Origin: an uncultured Planctomycetales bacterium
Lineage (GTDB): Bacteria > Omnitrophota > Gorgyraeia > Gygaellales > Profunditerraquicolaceae
DNA length: 64,000 nt
Assembly: GCA_964645795.1 (NCBI GenBank)
Contig: CAZYCL010000001.1
Span: 223,194-287,193 of the forward strand
Direction of reading: 5' to 3'
Shown here: positions 1 to 6,325 of the stretch, one piece after another
Position numbering within the stretch: position 1 is the first letter of the stretch
Layout: each line of letters begins with the position of its first letter
Notes under the pieces: model-generated
What the model saw: only the letters and a program-made list of their open reading frames with translations
What the model was told of the DNA's origin: nothing
The model's database searches: none
Program-made: the position numbers and the translations under genes

Positions 1-801
1 TTATTCATGCGGCTTCTGCTCTATATTTATATAATCCGTAAAATCTATCTTTTCCCCGATCTCCTGCTTGACCGTACGGATGCGATCAGGCACGTAGGGA
101 TGGGTTTTAAAGTATGATTTCGGCCGCAGAGGCTGCCTGCGGTAGATATCCTGGAGTTTTTCCAGGAACCTTATCATGCCGCGCGGATCGTATCCGGCAA
201 GAGAGGCGTAACGCGCACCGAGCTGATCAGCCAGAAGCTCGTCTTCCCGGCTGTAACCCAATAACAGCTCCACAAAAAGGGCGTCGCTTGCCGCGCCGAT
301 CTTGCCGGAGTCGGGCGCCTGCGAAACCAGGATCCTGAACAGGGAAAATCCCTGCAGGGCCTGCAGCTTCTTTATGCTGTGGCGGGCTACGATGTGGCCT
401 ACTTCGTGGGCGATAACACAAGCCAACTCATCGTCACTGGAAGCTTTTTCGATCAGCCCCTTGTTGATATAAACGAACCCGCCCGGAAGTGAAACCGCGT
501 TGACCTCATCGTCCTCCAGGACCTTAAAAGTGTAATCGATCTCTTTGCGGTCGCTTACCGCGGCGATCTTCCTGCCTATATCCTCGACCCTTTTCTGATA
601 AATGGGGTCATCCGCCAGCTTATACTCCTTTTCCACCTCCTTGGCGATAGCCTGACCCAGACGCACCTCCCTGTCCGTGCTGTAGTAATACATCTCCTCT
701 TCTCCCGTCACGATATTATATTCGGTAGAGCAGCCGGACAAGGCCAGGCATAAGGAAAAATTAATGGCAAGGAAAAAAGGCATGAAGATCTTCAGCTTCA
801 T
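1..801 (-). CDS. M48-family zinc metallopeptidase, predicted lipoprotein. It is translated in the same continuous ORF as the upstream Maf domain.
   Basis: The ORF 1..1365 has no internal stop. From the internal Met (codon 799-801) the protein reads MKLKIFMPFFLAINFSLCLALSGCS, a signal peptide plus lipobox. Further on are the HEVGH zinc-binding motif (VIAHEVGHIVARH) and a C-terminal region typical of BepA/YcaL-like M48 peptidases. Confidence 0.6.
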   Translation of the reverse strand: MKLKIFMPFFLAINFSLCLALSGCSTEYNIVTGEEEMYYYSTDREVRLGQAIAKEVEKEYKLADDPIYQKRVEDIGRKIAAVSDRKEIDYTFKVLEDDEVNAVSLPGGFVYINKGLIEKASSDDELACVIAHEVGHIVARHSIKKLQALQGFSLFRILVSQAPDSGKIGAASDALFVELLLGYSREDELLADQLGARYASLAGYDPRGMIRFLEKLQDIYRRQPLRPKSYFKTHPYVPDRIRTVKQEIGEKIDFTDYINIEQKPHE

Positions 802-1365
802 CCTCTCAAGCACAAGATAAAGCCTTCTCAGGGGCAGGCCCACGACATTATAATAACAACCGTCTATGCGCCGGATAAACACCGCCCCCCAACCCTGGAT
901 ATCGAAGCTTCCGGCCTTATCCAACGGCGAAACCTTCCTGAAATAATCGTCGATCTGGCGCTCGCGCAGCCTGTCCATATAGACGGTGGTTTTTTCACAG
1001 CCGAGCCGGATCTTGTTGTTTTCCTTGTCGATCACGGCTATGCCGCTATAGACAACCTGCGGCCTGGAGGAGATCTTTTTAAGCATCCTGCGCGCATCTT
1101 TAAGGTTGCGGGGCTTGCCGAATATCCTGCCGTCTTGGACGGTTATGGTGTCGGCAGCGATGATGATGCCGCTTTTGACCTTTTCAGACGCGGATTTGGC
1201 TTTTAGCAGCGCGTTATGCTTGACGAGCTCAGGGAAAGAATATCCGCCTCGGCCGGTCTTTTCTGTAATGTGCGTCGGGATGACCGTAAACTCCAACCCC
1301 AGGCGTTTTAACAGATTCTTTCTGGGTATGGATTGCGAAGCCAGGTATATTTTCCTTTTCTTCAT
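802..1365 (-). CDS. maf: Maf-like nucleoside triphosphate pyrophosphatase (septum-formation-associated Maf family), N-terminal part of the fused ORF
   Basis: The N-terminus KIYLASQSIPRKNLLKRLGLEF and the later segments SGIIIAADTIT and VVGLPL are Maf-family signatures. The domain ends at about ...LVLERM and runs straight on into the M48 reading frame. Confidence 0.65.
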
Positions 1366-1437
1366 GAGTTCTCGGGAATTCTCAGGGACGGTTCTTGGGA
1401 CAATCTAAAAGTATCCCCATAAAGAAGGCATTCGGCC

Positions 1438-2745
1438 TCACCGGATAGGCCGCTGCCCCTTTTTGCGGGACAGTTCTAAATCAGCTTGAGAACCGTCCCT
1501 GCTATTACAGGCGCTTGCTCCGGCCAGGTACCCGGTTGAAAAAGCCGCCTGAAGGTTAAAACCCCCGGTATCGGCGTCCAGATCGATCATCTCACCGCAA
1601 AAATAAAGCCCGCTGATTATCCTGGATTCCATGGTGCGCGGATTAATCTGTTTAAGCGAGACCCCTCCCCGGGTGATCATTGCTTCTTCTATGGGTTCGC
1701 CGCCGACAACCGTAAGCCTGAGGTTTTTTAACAGCTTGATTATAGCAAATCTTTCCTGTTGTGTAACCTGATTTGATGCCTTGGAAGGAGCGATCTTAAC
1801 AAGCGAAGTAAAAACTTCCGCCAGGCGCTGAGGGAGGAAATCTTTGAGAAGGTTTTTAAGCGATTTGTTGGGGGCGGCGATTATCTGCCTCAAAATCCTG
1901 GAGTCAAGCTGTTCGGCGCTCAATGCCGGCTTCAGGTCTATCTCGGCAAAAACCGGCTCCTCATATTCAAACCAATCTAAGACCTGCCCGCTCAGCGACA
2001 GGACCAGCGGGCCGGAGATGCCTTTACGCGTAAAAAGCAGCTCTCCTACTGCCGATATCACTTCTTTTTTTACGCAGGAGAACTTAACCGTTATATTCTT
2101 AAGGGTCAGGCCTTCAAGACGGCGCACAAACGCCTCTTTTATTACCAGCGGCACCAGCCCCGGACGAAGCTTCACCAGGTCGTGACCGCAGCTTCCGGCC
2201 AGCCTTATGCCGTCGCCTGTTGAGCCGGTAAAGGCATAAGAGACCCCGCCGGTAGCCAGGATCACCCTGTCAGCCGCCAGCTTCCTGTTGTCCTCCAGGA
2301 CCACTCCTGCCGCGCGCCGGCCTTCAAGAATGAGCTCTTTGACCGCGCAGCTTCTCATGAGCTTAACGCCGCAGGCCTTAAGCTCTTTCTCAAGGACAAT
2401 AAGCACGCTCTTTGAGCTGTCGGTAGCGGGAAAGACCCGCATCTGCCTTTCTACCTTAAGCTTTAATCCCCTCTCCTGAAAGAAAAGCATAAGCTCGGGG
2501 TAAAATAAATGCTTAAAAGCATCCCTGAGGAACTGCCCCGAGCGGGAGAAGCGTAAAAAAAACGAATCGATATCGGTTGTATTGGTCAGATTGCAGCGCC
2601 CCTTGCCGCTTAAAAGGAGCTTTCTGCCGAGGGTGGGGTTTCTTTCGATAAGAGTTACGTCCTGGCCAAGCTGGCCTGCCCTGATGGCTGCCATCATGCC
2701 TGCGGGGCCGGCACCTACGACAATGATCTTTAATTTATGGCTCAA
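1438..2745 (-). CDS. NAD(P)/FAD-dependent oxidoreductase, HI0933/YhiN (BaiN-like) flavoprotein family
   Basis: The N-terminal Rossmann motif is IIVVGAGPAGMMAAIRAGQLGQDVTLIER. Length and architecture fit the HI0933-like family. The last ~25 aa look like a non-conserved tail. Confidence 0.65.
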   Translation of the reverse strand: MSHKLKIIVVGAGPAGMMAAIRAGQLGQDVTLIERNPTLGRKLLLSGKGRCNLTNTTDIDSFFLRFSRSGQFLRDAFKHLFYPELMLFFQERGLKLKVERQMRVFPATDSSKSVLIVLEKELKACGVKLMRSCAVKELILEGRRAAGVVLEDNRKLAADRVILATGGVSYAFTGSTGDGIRLAGSCGHDLVKLRPGLVPLVIKEAFVRRLEGLTLKNITVKFSCVKKEVISAVGELLFTRKGISGPLVLSLSGQVLDWFEYEEPVFAEIDLKPALSAEQLDSRILRQIIAAPNKSLKNLLKDFLPQRLAEVFTSLVKIAPSKASNQVTQQERFAIIKLLKNLRLTVVGGEPIEEAMITRGGVSLKQINPRTMESRIISGLYFCGEMIDLDADTGGFNLQAAFSTGYLAGASACNSRDGSQADLELSRKKGQRPIR

Positions 2746-2749
2746 ATAT

Positions 2750-3313
2750 CTATAATCCGAAGTCTTTGATGGAAAATATGGACACCAGCTTCACGCCGGC
2801 ATTCTCCAGATTCTCTTTAGCGCCTTCTTCCCTGTCTACGATGACGATTGCCTCCGCTACCAGGACGCCGGCCCTCTCCAGCGCTTGCTTTGCTTCTATA
2901 AGAGCTTTGCCCGTAGTAGCCACGTCATCGACGATGACAGCCTTAGCGCCTTTTTGCAACGCCGGCCCTTCGATCTGGCGCTGCGTGCCGTGCTCTTTTG
3001 CAAATTTACGCACGATAAAAGTCTTAAAGCCGGCTTGCCGCTGGAACCCGAGGCAGGCCAGCGCCCCTACGATCGGGTCCGCGCCTAATGTCGGACCGCC
3101 GATGGCGCAAATACCCCTGCCCTTGACCATCTCATATATGATGCTGGCCACAAGGAACGCGCCTTCGGGCTCGAGCGTTATCACTCTGCCGTCAAGGTAA
3201 TAGCTGCTTTTCCTGCCGGAAGAAAGAAGGAAATCGCCCCTCTTCAGGGCCTGTGCCTCCAGCAGATGCTTTAGCCTTTTTTTCAACTCGCTGATATCAA
3301 TATCTTTAAGCAT
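2750..3313 (-). CDS. pyrE: orotate phosphoribosyltransferase
   Basis: 187 aa. The PRPP-binding motif VIVDDVATTGKAL is present, and the N-terminal region matches the short PyrE type. Confidence 0.8.
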   Translation of the reverse strand: MLKDIDISELKKRLKHLLEAQALKRGDFLLSSGRKSSYYLDGRVITLEPEGAFLVASIIYEMVKGRGICAIGGPTLGADPIVGALACLGFQRQAGFKTFIVRKFAKEHGTQRQIEGPALQKGAKAVIVDDVATTGKALIEAKQALERAGVLVAEAIVIVDREEGAKENLENAGVKLVSIFSIKDFGL

Positions 3314-3376
3314 GATTAAGGTATTTTACTATGGGAAGCGCGCGCTGTCAAACGATTAAGAAGCCCAGTAGCAACA

Positions 3377-3405
3377 TTGACAATAATTATATATGCTGTT
3401 ATCAT
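3377..3405 (+). promoter_or_regulatory. sigma70-type promoter (TTGACA-N17-TATCAT) positioned to give a leaderless comFC transcript
   Basis: TTGACA at 3377-3382, an exact 17-nt spacer, and TATCAT at 3400-3405. Only 6 nt separate the -10 from the ATG at 3412. Confidence 0.5.
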
Positions 3406-3411
3406 ATACGC

Positions 3412-4137
3412 ATGTTTGGCGGCCTGCTAAAAGGTCTGGTGGACCTGGTATATCCCAGGATATGCCTCTCCTGTAAAGAAAAGCTCCGGCAACGCCAACG
3501 GGAGAGGCTTGTCTGCGACAAGTGCCTCAACGGCATCAAAAAAAACGTGCCTCCTTTTTGTCAGGCCTGCGGCAGGCAGCTGGAACGCAAATCCGGGCTA
3601 AAGAACATCTGCCGGGATTGCGCCAGGAAAAGGCTTGCCTTTGACCGGGCCTTCTCCCCTTGCGTTTACGAAGGCCTGACCCGCCAGCTTTTGCATAAGT
3701 TCAAGTACCAGGGCAAAGAACATCTGGGTTTTGCGCTCAGCCAGATAATGGTGGATTTTATAAAAGAATATAGCCTGCCGATGGATTTTATCGACCTGCT
3801 TATTCCCGTGCCGCTGCACAAATCGCGGCTAAGGGAGCGCGAGTTCAACCAGGCGCTCGTATTGGCAAGGCATATCGCCTGCGCCTTTAACAAGCCCGTG
3901 CTGGAAAACTGCCTTAAAAGAGGCCGTCATACCAGAAAACAGGCGGATCTGGAGATGGACGAGCGTTTTGCCAACGTCGCGGGAAGCTTCAGGGTAGCCG
4001 AAGAATCCCCCATAAAAGGCAAAAACCTGCTTCTCATCGACGACATATTGACCACCGGCGCTACTGCTTCGGAGGCAGCAGCCGCCTTAAAAGGGGCGGG
4101 GGCAAATATTGTTTTCGTGCTTACCCTTGCCAGCTAA
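3412..4137 (+). CDS. comFC: ComF family protein (double zinc ribbon plus phosphoribosyltransferase domain)
   Basis: CxxC...CxxC motifs (CLSCKEK, CDKC, CQAC, CRDC) are followed by a PRT-type motif, LLLIDDILTTGATA. The start is moved to the internal Met at 3412 because the upstream part of the ATG-ORF covers the promoter. Confidence 0.6.
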   Translation: MFGGLLKGLVDLVYPRICLSCKEKLRQRQRERLVCDKCLNGIKKNVPPFCQACGRQLERKSGLKNICRDCARKRLAFDRAFSPCVYEGLTRQLLHKFKYQGKEHLGFALSQIMVDFIKEYSLPMDFIDLLIPVPLHKSRLREREFNQALVLARHIACAFNKPVLENCLKRGRHTRKQADLEMDERFANVAGSFRVAEESPIKGKNLLLIDDILTTGATASEAAAALKGAGANIVFVLTLAS

Positions 4138-4142
4138 ATCAA

Positions 4143-5240
4143 ATGAAAATACTGCGCAACTATCTGCTTAAAGAATTCACGGGCCCGCTGCTTCTATCCC
4201 TGGGGGTGCTTACTTTCGTAATGATCCTGGGCAACCTCGTCAAGATTGCGGACATGGTCATAAACAAGGGGATCGATTTGCGCAGTGTAGCCAAGCTTTT
4301 CCTTTTCATGATGCCTGCCCTGCTCAAATACACCCTGCCCATATCCGTGTTGATGGCGGTGCTCTTAAGCCTGGGCAGGCTCTCCGGAGATAATGAAATA
4401 GTCGCCATCAGGGCCTCAGGCATCAACCTGTTGAGGCTGGTATTGCCCATGACGCTGATAGGCCTTGTCTTAAGCCTGTTGCTGGTGATCTTCAACGACC
4501 GCGTCATACCTTATGCGCATTTTGCCACGCGTAAGACCCTGGTCGAGGTAGGGATAAAGAACCCTGCGGCAGCGCTCGAACCCGGCGTATTCATAAACTC
4601 TTTTGACAAGTATGTGCTGTTCATCTATCATATCGACCAGAACAGGCTTACCAACGTGCGTATTTATGAGCCTCAGGGCGAAAACCGGCCCACGCGCACG
4701 ATCGTGGCCAAAAGGGGGGAGTTCATCGCCATACCGGAGAAGAACATGATAAAATTAAAGCTCATCGACGGAACAAGCGATGAGCCGGACCCGGAAAACC
4801 CCAATAACTTTTACAAATTGAACTTCAAAACCTTCTTTATCTCCATGAATTTAAGCCAGATGCAAAACAGCCAGGATATAGAGAAAAAAGCCAGCGACAT
4901 GACCATTAACGAGCTTCGGGCCCAGATAGGCAAGCTGCGCGCCGAATCCATCGACGCCACGCCCCTGGTAACAGAGATAAACGAGAAGGTCGCCCTGGCA
5001 TTCTCATGCCTGGTCTTCGTGATACTTGGCATACCCCTGGCGGTGATCACCCGCCGCAGGGAGAAATCCATCAACTTCGGCATCGCCTTCGTGATAATCG
5101 GATTGTATTACCTGGCCCTCATCGGCTTTGAGGCGCTGGGATTACAGGGATTTATGAGGCCCGAGATTGCCATGTGGATGCCTAACATCCTGTTCGGGGC
5201 TGTCGGTATATTTCTTATCTACAGGTTATGCGAATCCTAG
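4143..5240 (+). CDS. lptF: LPS export ABC permease, LptF/LptG (YjgP/YjgQ) family
   Basis: 365 aa with N-terminal MKILRNYLLKEF..., the multi-TM topology and the central periplasmic domain typical of LptF/G. It overlaps its paralog downstream. Confidence 0.6.
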   Translation: MKILRNYLLKEFTGPLLLSLGVLTFVMILGNLVKIADMVINKGIDLRSVAKLFLFMMPALLKYTLPISVLMAVLLSLGRLSGDNEIVAIRASGINLLRLVLPMTLIGLVLSLLLVIFNDRVIPYAHFATRKTLVEVGIKNPAAALEPGVFINSFDKYVLFIYHIDQNRLTNVRIYEPQGENRPTRTIVAKRGEFIAIPEKNMIKLKLIDGTSDEPDPENPNNFYKLNFKTFFISMNLSQMQNSQDIEKKASDMTINELRAQIGKLRAESIDATPLVTEINEKVALAFSCLVFVILGIPLAVITRRREKSINFGIAFVIIGLYYLALIGFEALGLQGFMRPEIAMWMPNILFGAVGIFLIYRLCES

Positions 5241-6325
5241 ACCGCTATATATTAAAGGGTACGATACAGATATTCCTCGGCTGCCTGTTCACCTTTTTCC
5301 TCCTATATATAGTCATAGATATATTCGCCCATCTTGACAATATCCTGAAACACCAGGTAAGCCTCCTGACCCTCAAGCAGTACTATGCCTCTTATCTGCC
5401 GATCATCTTCGTGCAGGTCTCCCCCATCGCCTGTTTGTTGAGCACCATTTACACCTTCGGCAGGCTCAACCGCGATAACGAGATGATCGCCATGCGCTCT
5501 TCAGGGCTGTCGATATTCAATATTTCCAGGACCGCCCTGTTGTTCGCACTGACGATCAGCACCCTGGTCTTCTGGACGAATGAAAAGCTTGTCCCCTCAT
5601 CGCTATTGAGCAATGAAAGCATAAAAACAAGCATGGAATCCGGACGCTCGAAAGAAAATCAACAGGAGGAAGTAATCACTAACCTCTGCGTTTACGGCCT
5701 GAAAAACCGCCTTTACTTCATAAACAAATTCTTGGTCAAAACCACCACCATGCAGGGTGTGATAATCCTGGAGCAGGACGAACATCAAAACGTGGTGAAA
5801 AAGATCGTGGCTAACAAGGGGACCTATTCCGACGGACTCTGGACCTTCTACCAGTGCGTGACCTATGAGTTTGACGAAAAAGGGCAGATCGCCTCCGAAC
5901 CGGTATTCCTGCAGGAAGAGATCATGACCATCATCGAAACCCCCCAGGATTTCCTGAAGCAAAGACAGAGGCCGGAGTTCATGAATATCGCTAATCTCAA
6001 AAATTATATCTGGAAGCTGGATAGAAGCGGGGCAAGCAACCTTGCCAAGAACTTCAAGGTCGACCTCTATCAGCGCTACGCCATGCCCCTGACAAGCATA
6101 GTCATCACGCTCCTGGGGATCCCTTTCTCGCTTATCATGCGCAGGCGCGCGACGGGCCTATCTTCCGTGGGGATATCGATAATGGTAGGATTTTTGTATT
6201 ATGTGGTCAACGCCGTGAGCCTGGCCCTCGGGAAAGCAGGCCTGCTTTCTCCGCTTCTTTCCGCATCCCTGGCCCATATCATAGGGCTTGCCTTCGGCCT
6301 CTATTTAATCAGCAGGCTTCCCTAA
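5228..6325 (+). CDS. lptG: LPS export ABC permease, LptF/LptG family (second paralog)
   Basis: 365 aa with N-terminal MRILDRYILKG..., same family and same architecture. Adjacent paralogous pairs are typical of lptF-lptG. Confidence 0.6.
   Translation: MRILDRYILKGTIQIFLGCLFTFFLLYIVIDIFAHLDNILKHQVSLLTLKQYYASYLPIIFVQVSPIACLLSTIYTFGRLNRDNEMIAMRSSGLSIFNISRTALLFALTISTLVFWTNEKLVPSSLLSNESIKTSMESGRSKENQQEEVITNLCVYGLKNRLYFINKFLVKTTTMQGVIILEQDEHQNVVKKIVANKGTYSDGLWTFYQCVTYEFDEKGQIASEPVFLQEEIMTIIETPQDFLKQRQRPEFMNIANLKNYIWKLDRSGASNLAKNFKVDLYQRYAMPLTSIVITLLGIPFSLIMRRRATGLSSVGISIMVGFLYYVVNAVSLALGKAGLLSPLLSASLAHIIGLAFGLYLISRLP

Follow-up and report, generated by a model that had tools for sequence, protein, structure and literature searches.

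Lipoproteins of the Lpp type, matured by Lgt, LspA and Lnt, are made as prolipoproteins with a positively charged n-region, a hydrophobic h-region and a lipobox [LI][SA]GC, followed by an acidic mature N-terminus. Standard lipoprotein predictors require the lipobox Cys within the first ~35–40 residues and hence would miss a signal placed inside a protein. The nearest functional precedent for an internal signal is the cytochrome b-c1 polyprotein FbcH of Bradyrhizobium japonicum, which Thöny-Meyer et al. reportedly described in 1991 as leading 'from one gene to two proteins', the product of a gene fusion being split at an internal signal peptide by signal peptidase into two proteins. Here we describe an open reading frame (ORF) at the beginning of a 64,000-nucleotide stretch of DNA from an uncultured bacterium of the Omnitrophota (contig CAZYCL010000001.1, positions 223,194 to 287,193; hereafter the window), in which a Maf nucleotide pyrophosphatase and an M48 peptidase are joined through an internal lipoprotein signal. 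The fused protein, maf::M48, resembles the classical prolipoproteins in its n-region, h-region, lipobox and acidic mature N-terminus, whereas its signal sits behind a folded 190-residue cytoplasmic enzyme instead of at the N-terminus. FbcH has a polytopic membrane protein as its upstream partner and is cut by type I signal peptidase, whereas maf::M48 has a type II signal and a soluble upstream enzyme, and its cleavage is predicted. On balance, we favor the view that maf::M48 is a selectively maintained fusion, the full-length precursor of which would be inserted into the membrane, lipidated and split at the internal lipobox.

In the window, positions 1..1365 of the minus strand form a single ORF of 454 amino acids (aa) without any in-frame stop, with the following features:

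1..1365, minus strand: fused maf::M48 ORF, start ATG 1365..1363, stop TAA 3..1
802..1353, minus strand: Maf nucleotide pyrophosphatase domain, aa 5–188 (Pfam PF02545, TIGR00172)
61..597, minus strand: Peptidase_M48 domain, aa 257–435 (Pfam PF01435, 116 bits, cut-off 20.3)
394..408, minus strand: zinc-binding motif HEVGH, aa 320–324, with H320, E321 and H324 invariant
238..240, minus strand: Glu376 in YSREDELLAD, probable third zinc ligand, with D375, E376 and D380 invariant
4..732, minus strand: predicted mature M48 lipoprotein, aa 212–454, from the lipobox Cys onward, first residues C-S-T-E-Y-N

The ORF and its Pfam domains bear out the original prediction, made from the DNA letters alone, of one uninterrupted frame holding Maf, a lipobox (LSGC) and an M48 peptidase with HEVGH. 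PF02545 scored 173.1 bits (cut-off 27) over positions 1–186 of the 187-position profile, indicating a complete Maf domain, and the NCBIfam model of the Maf subfamily, TIGR00172, was passed with 156.5 bits (cut-off 117.15). The nearest solved structure is that of B. subtilis Maf (PDB 1EX2, E 5e-31), and E. coli YhdE (4P0E) was also matched; with these stand-alone proteins the fused Maf shares the full fold, the motifs and the C-terminal helix GLPL…L…L. All the active-site motifs (S-x-S…R, Lys, A-D-T, G-K-P and the AG…IQG loop) are present, and their residues align to those of B. subtilis Maf and YhdE. Among 78 aligned fused homologues, R15, K55, A71-D72-T73, K84-P85 and A151-G152 are invariant, and S10, S12 and Q157 almost so. 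Judged by its sequence, the Maf part is an ordinary Maf with predicted pyrophosphatase activity. Known Maf proteins are soluble, about 190 residues long, and end a few residues past the C-terminal helix, whereas the fused Maf has no stop and its tail doubles as an n-region. Human ASMTL (PDB 2P5X) also has a Maf fused to another domain, but there the partner is cytosolic and methyltransferase-like, and is not exported.

For the M48 part, the nearest solved structures are 3C37 from Geobacter sulfurreducens (E 6.6e-39) and then BepA (E 3e-20). Like these and the other periplasmic M48 proteases LoiP and YcaL, it contains HExxH and a downstream Glu in YSRExExxAD; from general knowledge of M48 peptidases, we take Glu376 to be a zinc ligand. 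It differs from them in forming a subfamily of its own with an internal signal, while its stand-alone orthologues, of ~260 aa, are lipoproteins whose signals are N-terminal. Assignment as a BepA orthologue (NF052400) was rejected at 113.9 bits against a cut-off of 570, the protein having no tetratricopeptide repeats and ending at aa 454 after the protease domain; assignment as a LoiP orthologue (NF052399) was likewise rejected, at 58.6 bits against 365. An AlphaFold2 model (mean predicted local distance difference test score 77.6, predicted template modeling score 0.52) showed two well-folded domains with no confident interdomain packing, bridged by the terminal Maf helix 179–188 and a low-confidence helix 195–208.

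The stretch between the two domains reads ...GLPLRRLYLVLERMKLKIFMPFFLAINFSLCLALSGCSTEYN, at length …NVVGLPLRRLYLVLERMKLKIFMPFFLAINFSLCLALSGCSTEYN…, and contains three elements:

784..840, minus strand: Maf C-terminal tail GLPLRRLYLVLERMKLKIF, aa 176–194, a 19-residue stretch immediately followed by the maf stop in unfused relatives
733..783, minus strand: h-region MPFFLAINFSLCLALSG, aa 195–211 (17 residues from M195), the sole membrane-spanning-type segment of the protein
730..741, minus strand: lipobox L-S-G-C, aa 209–212, with the Cys212 codon at 732..730

Residues 191–213 make up the only strongly hydrophobic stretch of the protein, with a 19-residue Kyte-Doolittle mean of 1.97 against 0.9 for the next best. 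The lipobox fits [LVI][ASTVI][GAS]C and is preceded by the uncharged h-region and, before that, by K190 and K192. G211 and C212 are invariant in all 78 aligned fused sequences, and over 127 fusions the pattern is [LIFVM][SAT]GC with G and C again invariant. The Cys is residue 212 of the ORF, far outside the range required for N-terminal signals, and aligns with the lipobox Cys of stand-alone orthologues having ordinary N-terminal lipoprotein signals. The mature N-terminus C-[ST]-T-E-Y-N is conserved in the M48 subfamily of the fused protein, and in a second, diverged subfamily of fusions only ~10 residues have been added past the Maf tail. The mean net charge is +3.4 before the hydrophobic segment and –2.3 in the 15 residues after the Cys, so the positive-inside rule is obeyed; such a pattern is the signature of an N-in/C-out signal-anchor, in which the Lys and Arg residues of the Maf tail now act as the positive n-region of an export signal. 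An internal signal peptide had originally been thought incoherent for a single polypeptide, but a cytoplasmic domain followed by positive charges, a hydrophobic segment and an acidic exported domain is normal N-in/C-out topology.

A separate observation concerns one metagenome contig (Ga0172375_10044291). Its fused gene is typical in all other respects, but a TGA stands where the lipobox Cys codon should be (…VMLAG, stop, TTEYNIVT…). Maf and the h-region would terminate there, with the M48 part left untranslated. In this single case the TGA may have arisen by nonsense mutation (TGY to TGA) or read error, or the gene may be a pseudogene.

The apparent fusion might also be an artefact or a fresh pseudogene, in which the stop between two normal genes was removed by an error of sequencing or assembly, or by a mutation newly arisen in this strain. 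Close relatives do have separate overlapping genes, where a single indel would mimic a fusion. However, the DNA of the gene is 100% identical over all 1365 bases in three Logan contigs from other sequencing runs, catalytic residues are retained in both domains, and more than 240 clusters, reaching down to 39% identity and many of them on long contigs or complete genomes, keep the fused ORF open. This explanation is therefore hardly credible. A search of 5.8 billion proteins gave 1964 matches, of which the best 120 were checked for domains; these 120 (65–70% identity, 437–464 aa) all have both Pfam domains, and the named sources among them are Candidatus Omnitrophota/Omnitrophica. A second search, exhaustive and profile-free, of 1.84 billion cluster representatives retrieved a fused protein at 39% identity (P0123) and fused fragments at 44–48% (P0124, P0128 and P0133), together with many stand-alone M48 lipoproteins of ~260 aa whose N-terminal signals align to residues ~190–212 of the query. 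With P0124 as query, the second fused subfamily emerged at ~45% identity, with more than 115 clusters fused; the 120 clusters among the matches listed are from Omnitrophota, most of them 420–461 aa long besides a few shorter fragments, and some of these fusions lie on contigs of 0.8–1.6 Mb. Other distant fusions (L051, L054, L057 and L061) were found at ~50% identity. Altogether, the same architecture occurs in more than 240 protein clusters of two diverged subfamilies, almost all from Omnitrophota.

Two fused genes at 65–67% identity (CAYOMI010000071.1 and DATJPP010000102.1) are labeled 'uncultured Planctomycetales' and 'Candidatus Margulisiibacteriota'. Given that all other named matches are Omnitrophota, these labels probably reflect mis-binning or misclassification rather than spread outside the phylum.

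As the catalytic residues and Gly211-Cys212 are invariant, both enzymes and the lipobox are under purifying selection, and the fusion is genuine and widespread. Among the explanations first offered for the continuous frame, sequencing error is refuted by the identical DNA in independent assemblies and by the ORF staying open across the diverged clusters, while an unusual genuine fusion is the option that the reproducible DNA, the open frame of diverged homologues and the retained catalytic residues support. The NCBI annotation already carries the name 'Maf and M48 domain-containing protein' for this architecture; the ORF is thus annotated though unstudied, and what is new here is its interpretation and evolutionary history.

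The origin of the fusion can be traced in relatives. Scanning metagenome contigs with the fused-protein alignment gave 79 further loci, the DNA of which was read. In ten relatives (43–59% identity), maf and the M48 gene are separate but adjacent. At the eight junctions read, maf ends 18–19 codons past GLP (for example, GLPLAKLAKLLKKAGIDVF and then the stop), and its stop stands at the exact point where the hydrophobic region of the fusions begins (…MLKKLDIKVF/LFLFC…). In six of the eight, the M48 gene starts before maf has ended, and the arrangements are as follows:

L077 and L080: M48 start and maf stop in an ATGA overlap
L071: M48 start and maf stop in a GTGA overlap
L065 and L066: M48 start overlapping the maf stop by 11 nucleotides (nt)
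L085: M48 start overlapping the maf stop by 14 nt
L078: M48 start 13 nt downstream of the maf stop
L072: M48 start 25 nt downstream of the maf stop

Given these overlaps, the ancestral state was a tightly coupled operon, probably with translational coupling. As read from the junctions, the fusion is a merger of the two frames at the overlap, in which the maf stop, the old M48 start and its n-region were lost. Compared with the ATGA-type coupled pairs of the relatives, the fusion preserves 1:1 co-expression, whereas the frames are merged and the downstream start codon is gone. The basic Maf tail (…ERMKLKIF in the window, …MLKKLDIKVF in most relatives) now runs directly into the h-region. Because nothing is left at the junction of the old M48 start and n-region, the fusion was not a simple one-base change, which further opposes an artefact. 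One codon marks the former boundary:

781..783, minus strand: ATG (M195), exactly at the former maf/M48 boundary

A Met occupies this column in 14–25% of fusions, and M195 may have been left over from the old M48 start. The 'lost stop codon' of the original prediction thus holds as an old, fixed event, the relatives having kept the maf stop at the junction, and fails as a recent loss. Whether orthologues normally have a stop there depends on their state: it is absent from the more than 240 fused clusters and present in the unfused relatives.

Neighbor-joining trees with 200 bootstraps, which are simple distance trees from the M48 domain alone, gave the following groups:

Main fused clade, including the window: bootstrap 95%
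Unfused overlapping pair L066 as sister to the main fused clade: bootstrap 84%
Separate fused clade of L051, L054, L057 and L061: bootstrap 96%
Fused P0124 and P0128 nested among unfused adjacent pairs: bootstrap 92%
Fused P0123 with stand-alone M48 genes: bootstrap 83%
Unfused adjacent pairs monophyletic by themselves: bootstrap 0%
All fused sequences monophyletic: bootstrap 0%

The interleaving of fused and unfused forms in these trees indicates that the locus changed state several times, by fusion or fission. Moreover, three loci inside the main fused clade encode the lipoprotein alone. The first, L011 (3941–4726), groups with the fused L029 at 100% and has the same pyrE-flavoprotein synteny as the window; its protein begins M-GLPL-LKF…FGC, retaining the GLPL motif of Maf right after the start Met. 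The second, L062 (992–1789), begins MIKKVKVNLL… and lies in a different genomic context. The third, L063 (about 194–1018), groups with the fused L064 at a bootstrap of only 48%. All three are secondary losses of the Maf part, and the protease works without an attached Maf. Their N-terminal lipoprotein signals, found on contigs of Omnitrophota, are canonical and lend indirect support to lipidation of the fused protein.

These features enable us to propose a putative biogenesis for maf::M48. Ribosomes starting at 1365 would translate the entire 454-aa precursor. When the hydrophobic segment (aa 191–211) emerges after Maf, the signal recognition particle and Sec would insert it co-translationally as an N-in/C-out signal-anchor, Maf remaining cytoplasmic and the M48 domain being translocated to the periplasm. 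Subsequently, Lgt would lipidate Cys212 and LspA would cleave before it. The products would be a mature lipoprotein protease of ~27 kDa and a Maf with a C-terminal hydrophobic membrane tail, at least transiently. In this way one gene would give two proteins in two compartments at 1:1, as did the coupled gene pair that it replaced. With no stop between the domains, ribosomes translating maf run on to the M48 stop, and a full-length chain is made in every species. We judge the chances to be about even that such an Lgt/LspA-split precursor exists across much of the Omnitrophota as a natural 'type II signal peptidase polyprotein', with genomes toggling between fused and two-gene states that yield the same products. 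Neither a Maf-M48 fusion nor an internal lipobox or lipoprotein signal turned up in a literature search, and two Omnitrophota genome papers make no mention of them.

Several points weigh against this biogenesis. No described natural LspA cleavage behind a ~190-residue cytoplasmic domain was found in the literature search. Main-clade h-regions exceed those of the stand-alone orthologues in length (median 19 vs 14), which could reflect either a stronger signal needed at an internal position or a stable anchor. Furthermore, a Met stands at a candidate internal start in 208 of 242 fusions compared with 8 of 17 unfused Maf proteins (Fisher p 4e-4, uncorrected for phylogeny). From that Met onward the sequence is a textbook lipoprotein signal peptide of 20–28 residues, so in most species the exported protease could come from internal initiation. 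Two codons come into question:

811..813, minus strand: GTG (V185, position GLP+9), possible internal start; Met here in ~86% of fused homologues
799..801, minus strand: ATG (M189), the internal Met of the original prediction; Met at this column in 4 of 120 main-clade sequences

Initiation at GTG 813..811 (ATG in most relatives) or at ATG 801..799 would yield an ordinary prolipoprotein, the full-length chain then being a by-product or a minor membrane-tethered form. We consider this explanation unlikely, although it has evidence of its own. Starting from the candidate codon, the signal is canonical, with a positive n-region (MLKK…), an h-region and a lipobox, and 17–28 residues to the Cys; in the window the Cys would be at +28 from a start at 813..811 and at +24 from one at 801..799. 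AGAAGG lies 9 nt upstream of the GTG, and its duplex (–4.6 kcal/mol) is stronger than the one upstream of the annotated maf start (–3.0 kcal/mol). The beginning of the stand-alone derivative L062 resembles a start at the candidate Met, and Met is found at GLP+9 in 113 of 127 members of the main subfamily and 95 of 115 of the second. However, this Met is ancestral to the Maf lineage, being present in four of the five closest unfused genes, which belong to the interleaved clade (L071, L072, L077 and L080; Ile in L078). Against these relatives the Met enrichment vanishes, and it was rejected as a sign of an internal start. The Met is missing in 14% of fusions; among 58 fused loci the GLP+9 codon is not ATG in 18, and only 2 of these 18 have GTG or TTG, the replacements being ATT (7), ATC (2), ATA (2) and CTG, CTT, CTC, GTA, AGC, TTG and GTG (1 each). 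Roughly a tenth of fusions lack any Met ahead of the lipobox (13 of 127 in the main subfamily, counted between Maf and the h-region, and 12 of 115 in the second, between Maf and the lipobox), so in those the full-length chain is the only possible source of the protease. As to the ATG at 801..799, it stands where the original prediction had placed it, with GAGAGG abutting it at zero spacer. It is not conserved, and initiation from it is not supported, the Met being peculiar to the window genome. The codon at 813..811 would be the likelier internal start, but the family as a whole does not depend on it.

Duplex energies with the anti-Shine-Dalgarno sequence were compared between the 58 fused loci, 448 other internal ATGs and 13 unfused genes; true maf starts were recovered from 3 loci only, too few as a control. 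Pairing upstream of the candidate start was no better than at random internal ATGs (mean –1.5 vs –2.6 kcal/mol) in this low-power test. Its power is small because the genome uses Shine-Dalgarno sequences weakly, energies of –4 kcal/mol or below being seen at 41% of the starts of window genes against 29% of internal ATGs. The Arg codon at G+4 is AGR in 31 of 48 cases compared with 45% AGR elsewhere in the same genes, a mild bias, and a promoter scan found no sigma-70-like promoter within maf on the coding strand. Programmed frameshifting at the T-rich h-region, by which Maf could end early, was set aside, since stops arise by chance in shifted frames of Phe- and Leu-rich codons. Even with an internal start, the full-length protein is made regardless, as no stop precedes the end of M48.

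The longer h-region also bears on another explanation, namely that the product is a permanent single-pass membrane protein, in which an uncut helix, perhaps lipidated at Cys212, joins a cytoplasmic Maf to a periplasmic M48. The two activities would then be physically coupled at the inner membrane. In the main clade the uncharged stretch is of transmembrane length (median 19, mode 20), significantly longer than in the stand-alone signals, for which the median of 14 was given above. The keeping of the fusion across a phylum fits a bitopic protein, and a maf-M48 linkage older than the fusion suggests a functional connection. An anchor alone, however, leaves the strict Gly-Cys invariance unexplained, and lipidation by Lgt is normally followed by cleavage by LspA. 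Several h-regions, of only 10–13 residues, are too short for a stable helix, and the mere ~10 residues gained past the Maf tail in the second subfamily likewise speak against one. The repeated interconversion of fused and split states and the loss of Maf in L011, L062 and L063 suggest that the covalent link is unneeded. Finally, Ser, Thr or Ala at position +2, read by the sorting rule of E. coli, and the BepA-type homology suggest that the protease leaves the inner membrane. We thus regard a permanent anchor as quite improbable, and favor cleavage over it because of the invariant Gly-Cys, the short h-regions, and the state switching together with the three Maf losses.

The surroundings of the fused gene in the window include the following features:

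4143–5240 and 5228–6325, plus strand: LptF and LptG, lipopolysaccharide-export permeases (292 and 272 bits)
3331–4137, plus strand: ComF-like protein (double zinc ribbon and phosphoribosyltransferase domain), divergent from a pyrE-like gene at 2750–3313
3351–3323, minus strand: near-consensus sigma-70-like promoter TTGACA-17-TAAAAT (11 of 12)
1382–1501, minus strand: imperfect palindromic hairpin of ~120 nt, outer arms CAGGGACGGTTCT at 1383–1395 and 1489–1501

Since LptF and LptG are encoded in the window, the organism is, by its gene content, a diderm with a lipopolysaccharide outer membrane and a periplasm. The promoter at 3351–3323 may drive an operon of the pyrE-like gene, a flavoprotein gene and maf::M48; apart from it, a scan for promoters and terminators around the fusion gave nothing compelling. 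The hairpin was seen by eye and confirmed by pattern search and by folding (–64.4 kcal/mol for the RNA, z = –5.3 vs shuffles). Present as a single copy in the window, it straddles the stop of the HI0933-like flavoprotein gene (1440..1438) and ends 17 nt before the maf ATG (1365). A search of Rfam with window positions 1–4000 gave no match, the hairpin included. Its possible roles include those of a terminator, a processing site and a regulatory structure. Each of the three Logan contigs with the gene starts at window position 1496, within the outer arm, a 13-nt inverted repeat, and these ends look like an assembly break caused by that repeat.

Farther along the window are genes for an alanine racemase, a TsaD-family protein (tsaB-like), TsaE, an AIR-synthase-related protein and an IF-2B-family protein. 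Two regular-expression scans of ~60 window genes for other N-terminal lipoprotein signals returned no matches, an uninformative result for a set of this size. The gene after the fusion lies beyond the first base of the window. At the related locus L015 it occupies 1489–2565, overlaps the end of the fusion by 8 nt and encodes 358 aa with a faint Glyco_hydro_42 match; the next genes encode a glycogen-debranching-type enzyme, a Na+/H+ exchanger with TrkA_N and a GDSL-like protein. Cell-division or mre genes neighbor maf in many model bacteria; none was found near the fusion in the L015 neighborhood.

In summary, maf::M48 is more interesting than an error and less than a new system: a phylum-wide fusion with a clear origin and an unusual predicted biogenesis, and the construct is small and could easily be tested in E. 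coli. Should the precursor indeed be cleaved at its internal lipobox, maf::M48 would provide a natural example of a lipoprotein signal acting far from the N-terminus and would be a bacterial 'one gene, two compartments' polyprotein. The substrate range of Lgt and LspA would then extend to signals behind a folded 190-residue domain, and predictors confined to the N-terminus would systematically overlook a class of exported proteins. The locus also bears on how overlapping, translationally coupled genes evolve to fusions and back. The cellular role of Maf is debated between nucleotide house-cleaning and cell-division arrest. The old and repeated linkage of maf to the M48 lipoprotein gene, whether adjacent, overlapping or fused, points to a functional tie, and here Maf is linked with an envelope protease whose relatives act in outer-membrane quality control.

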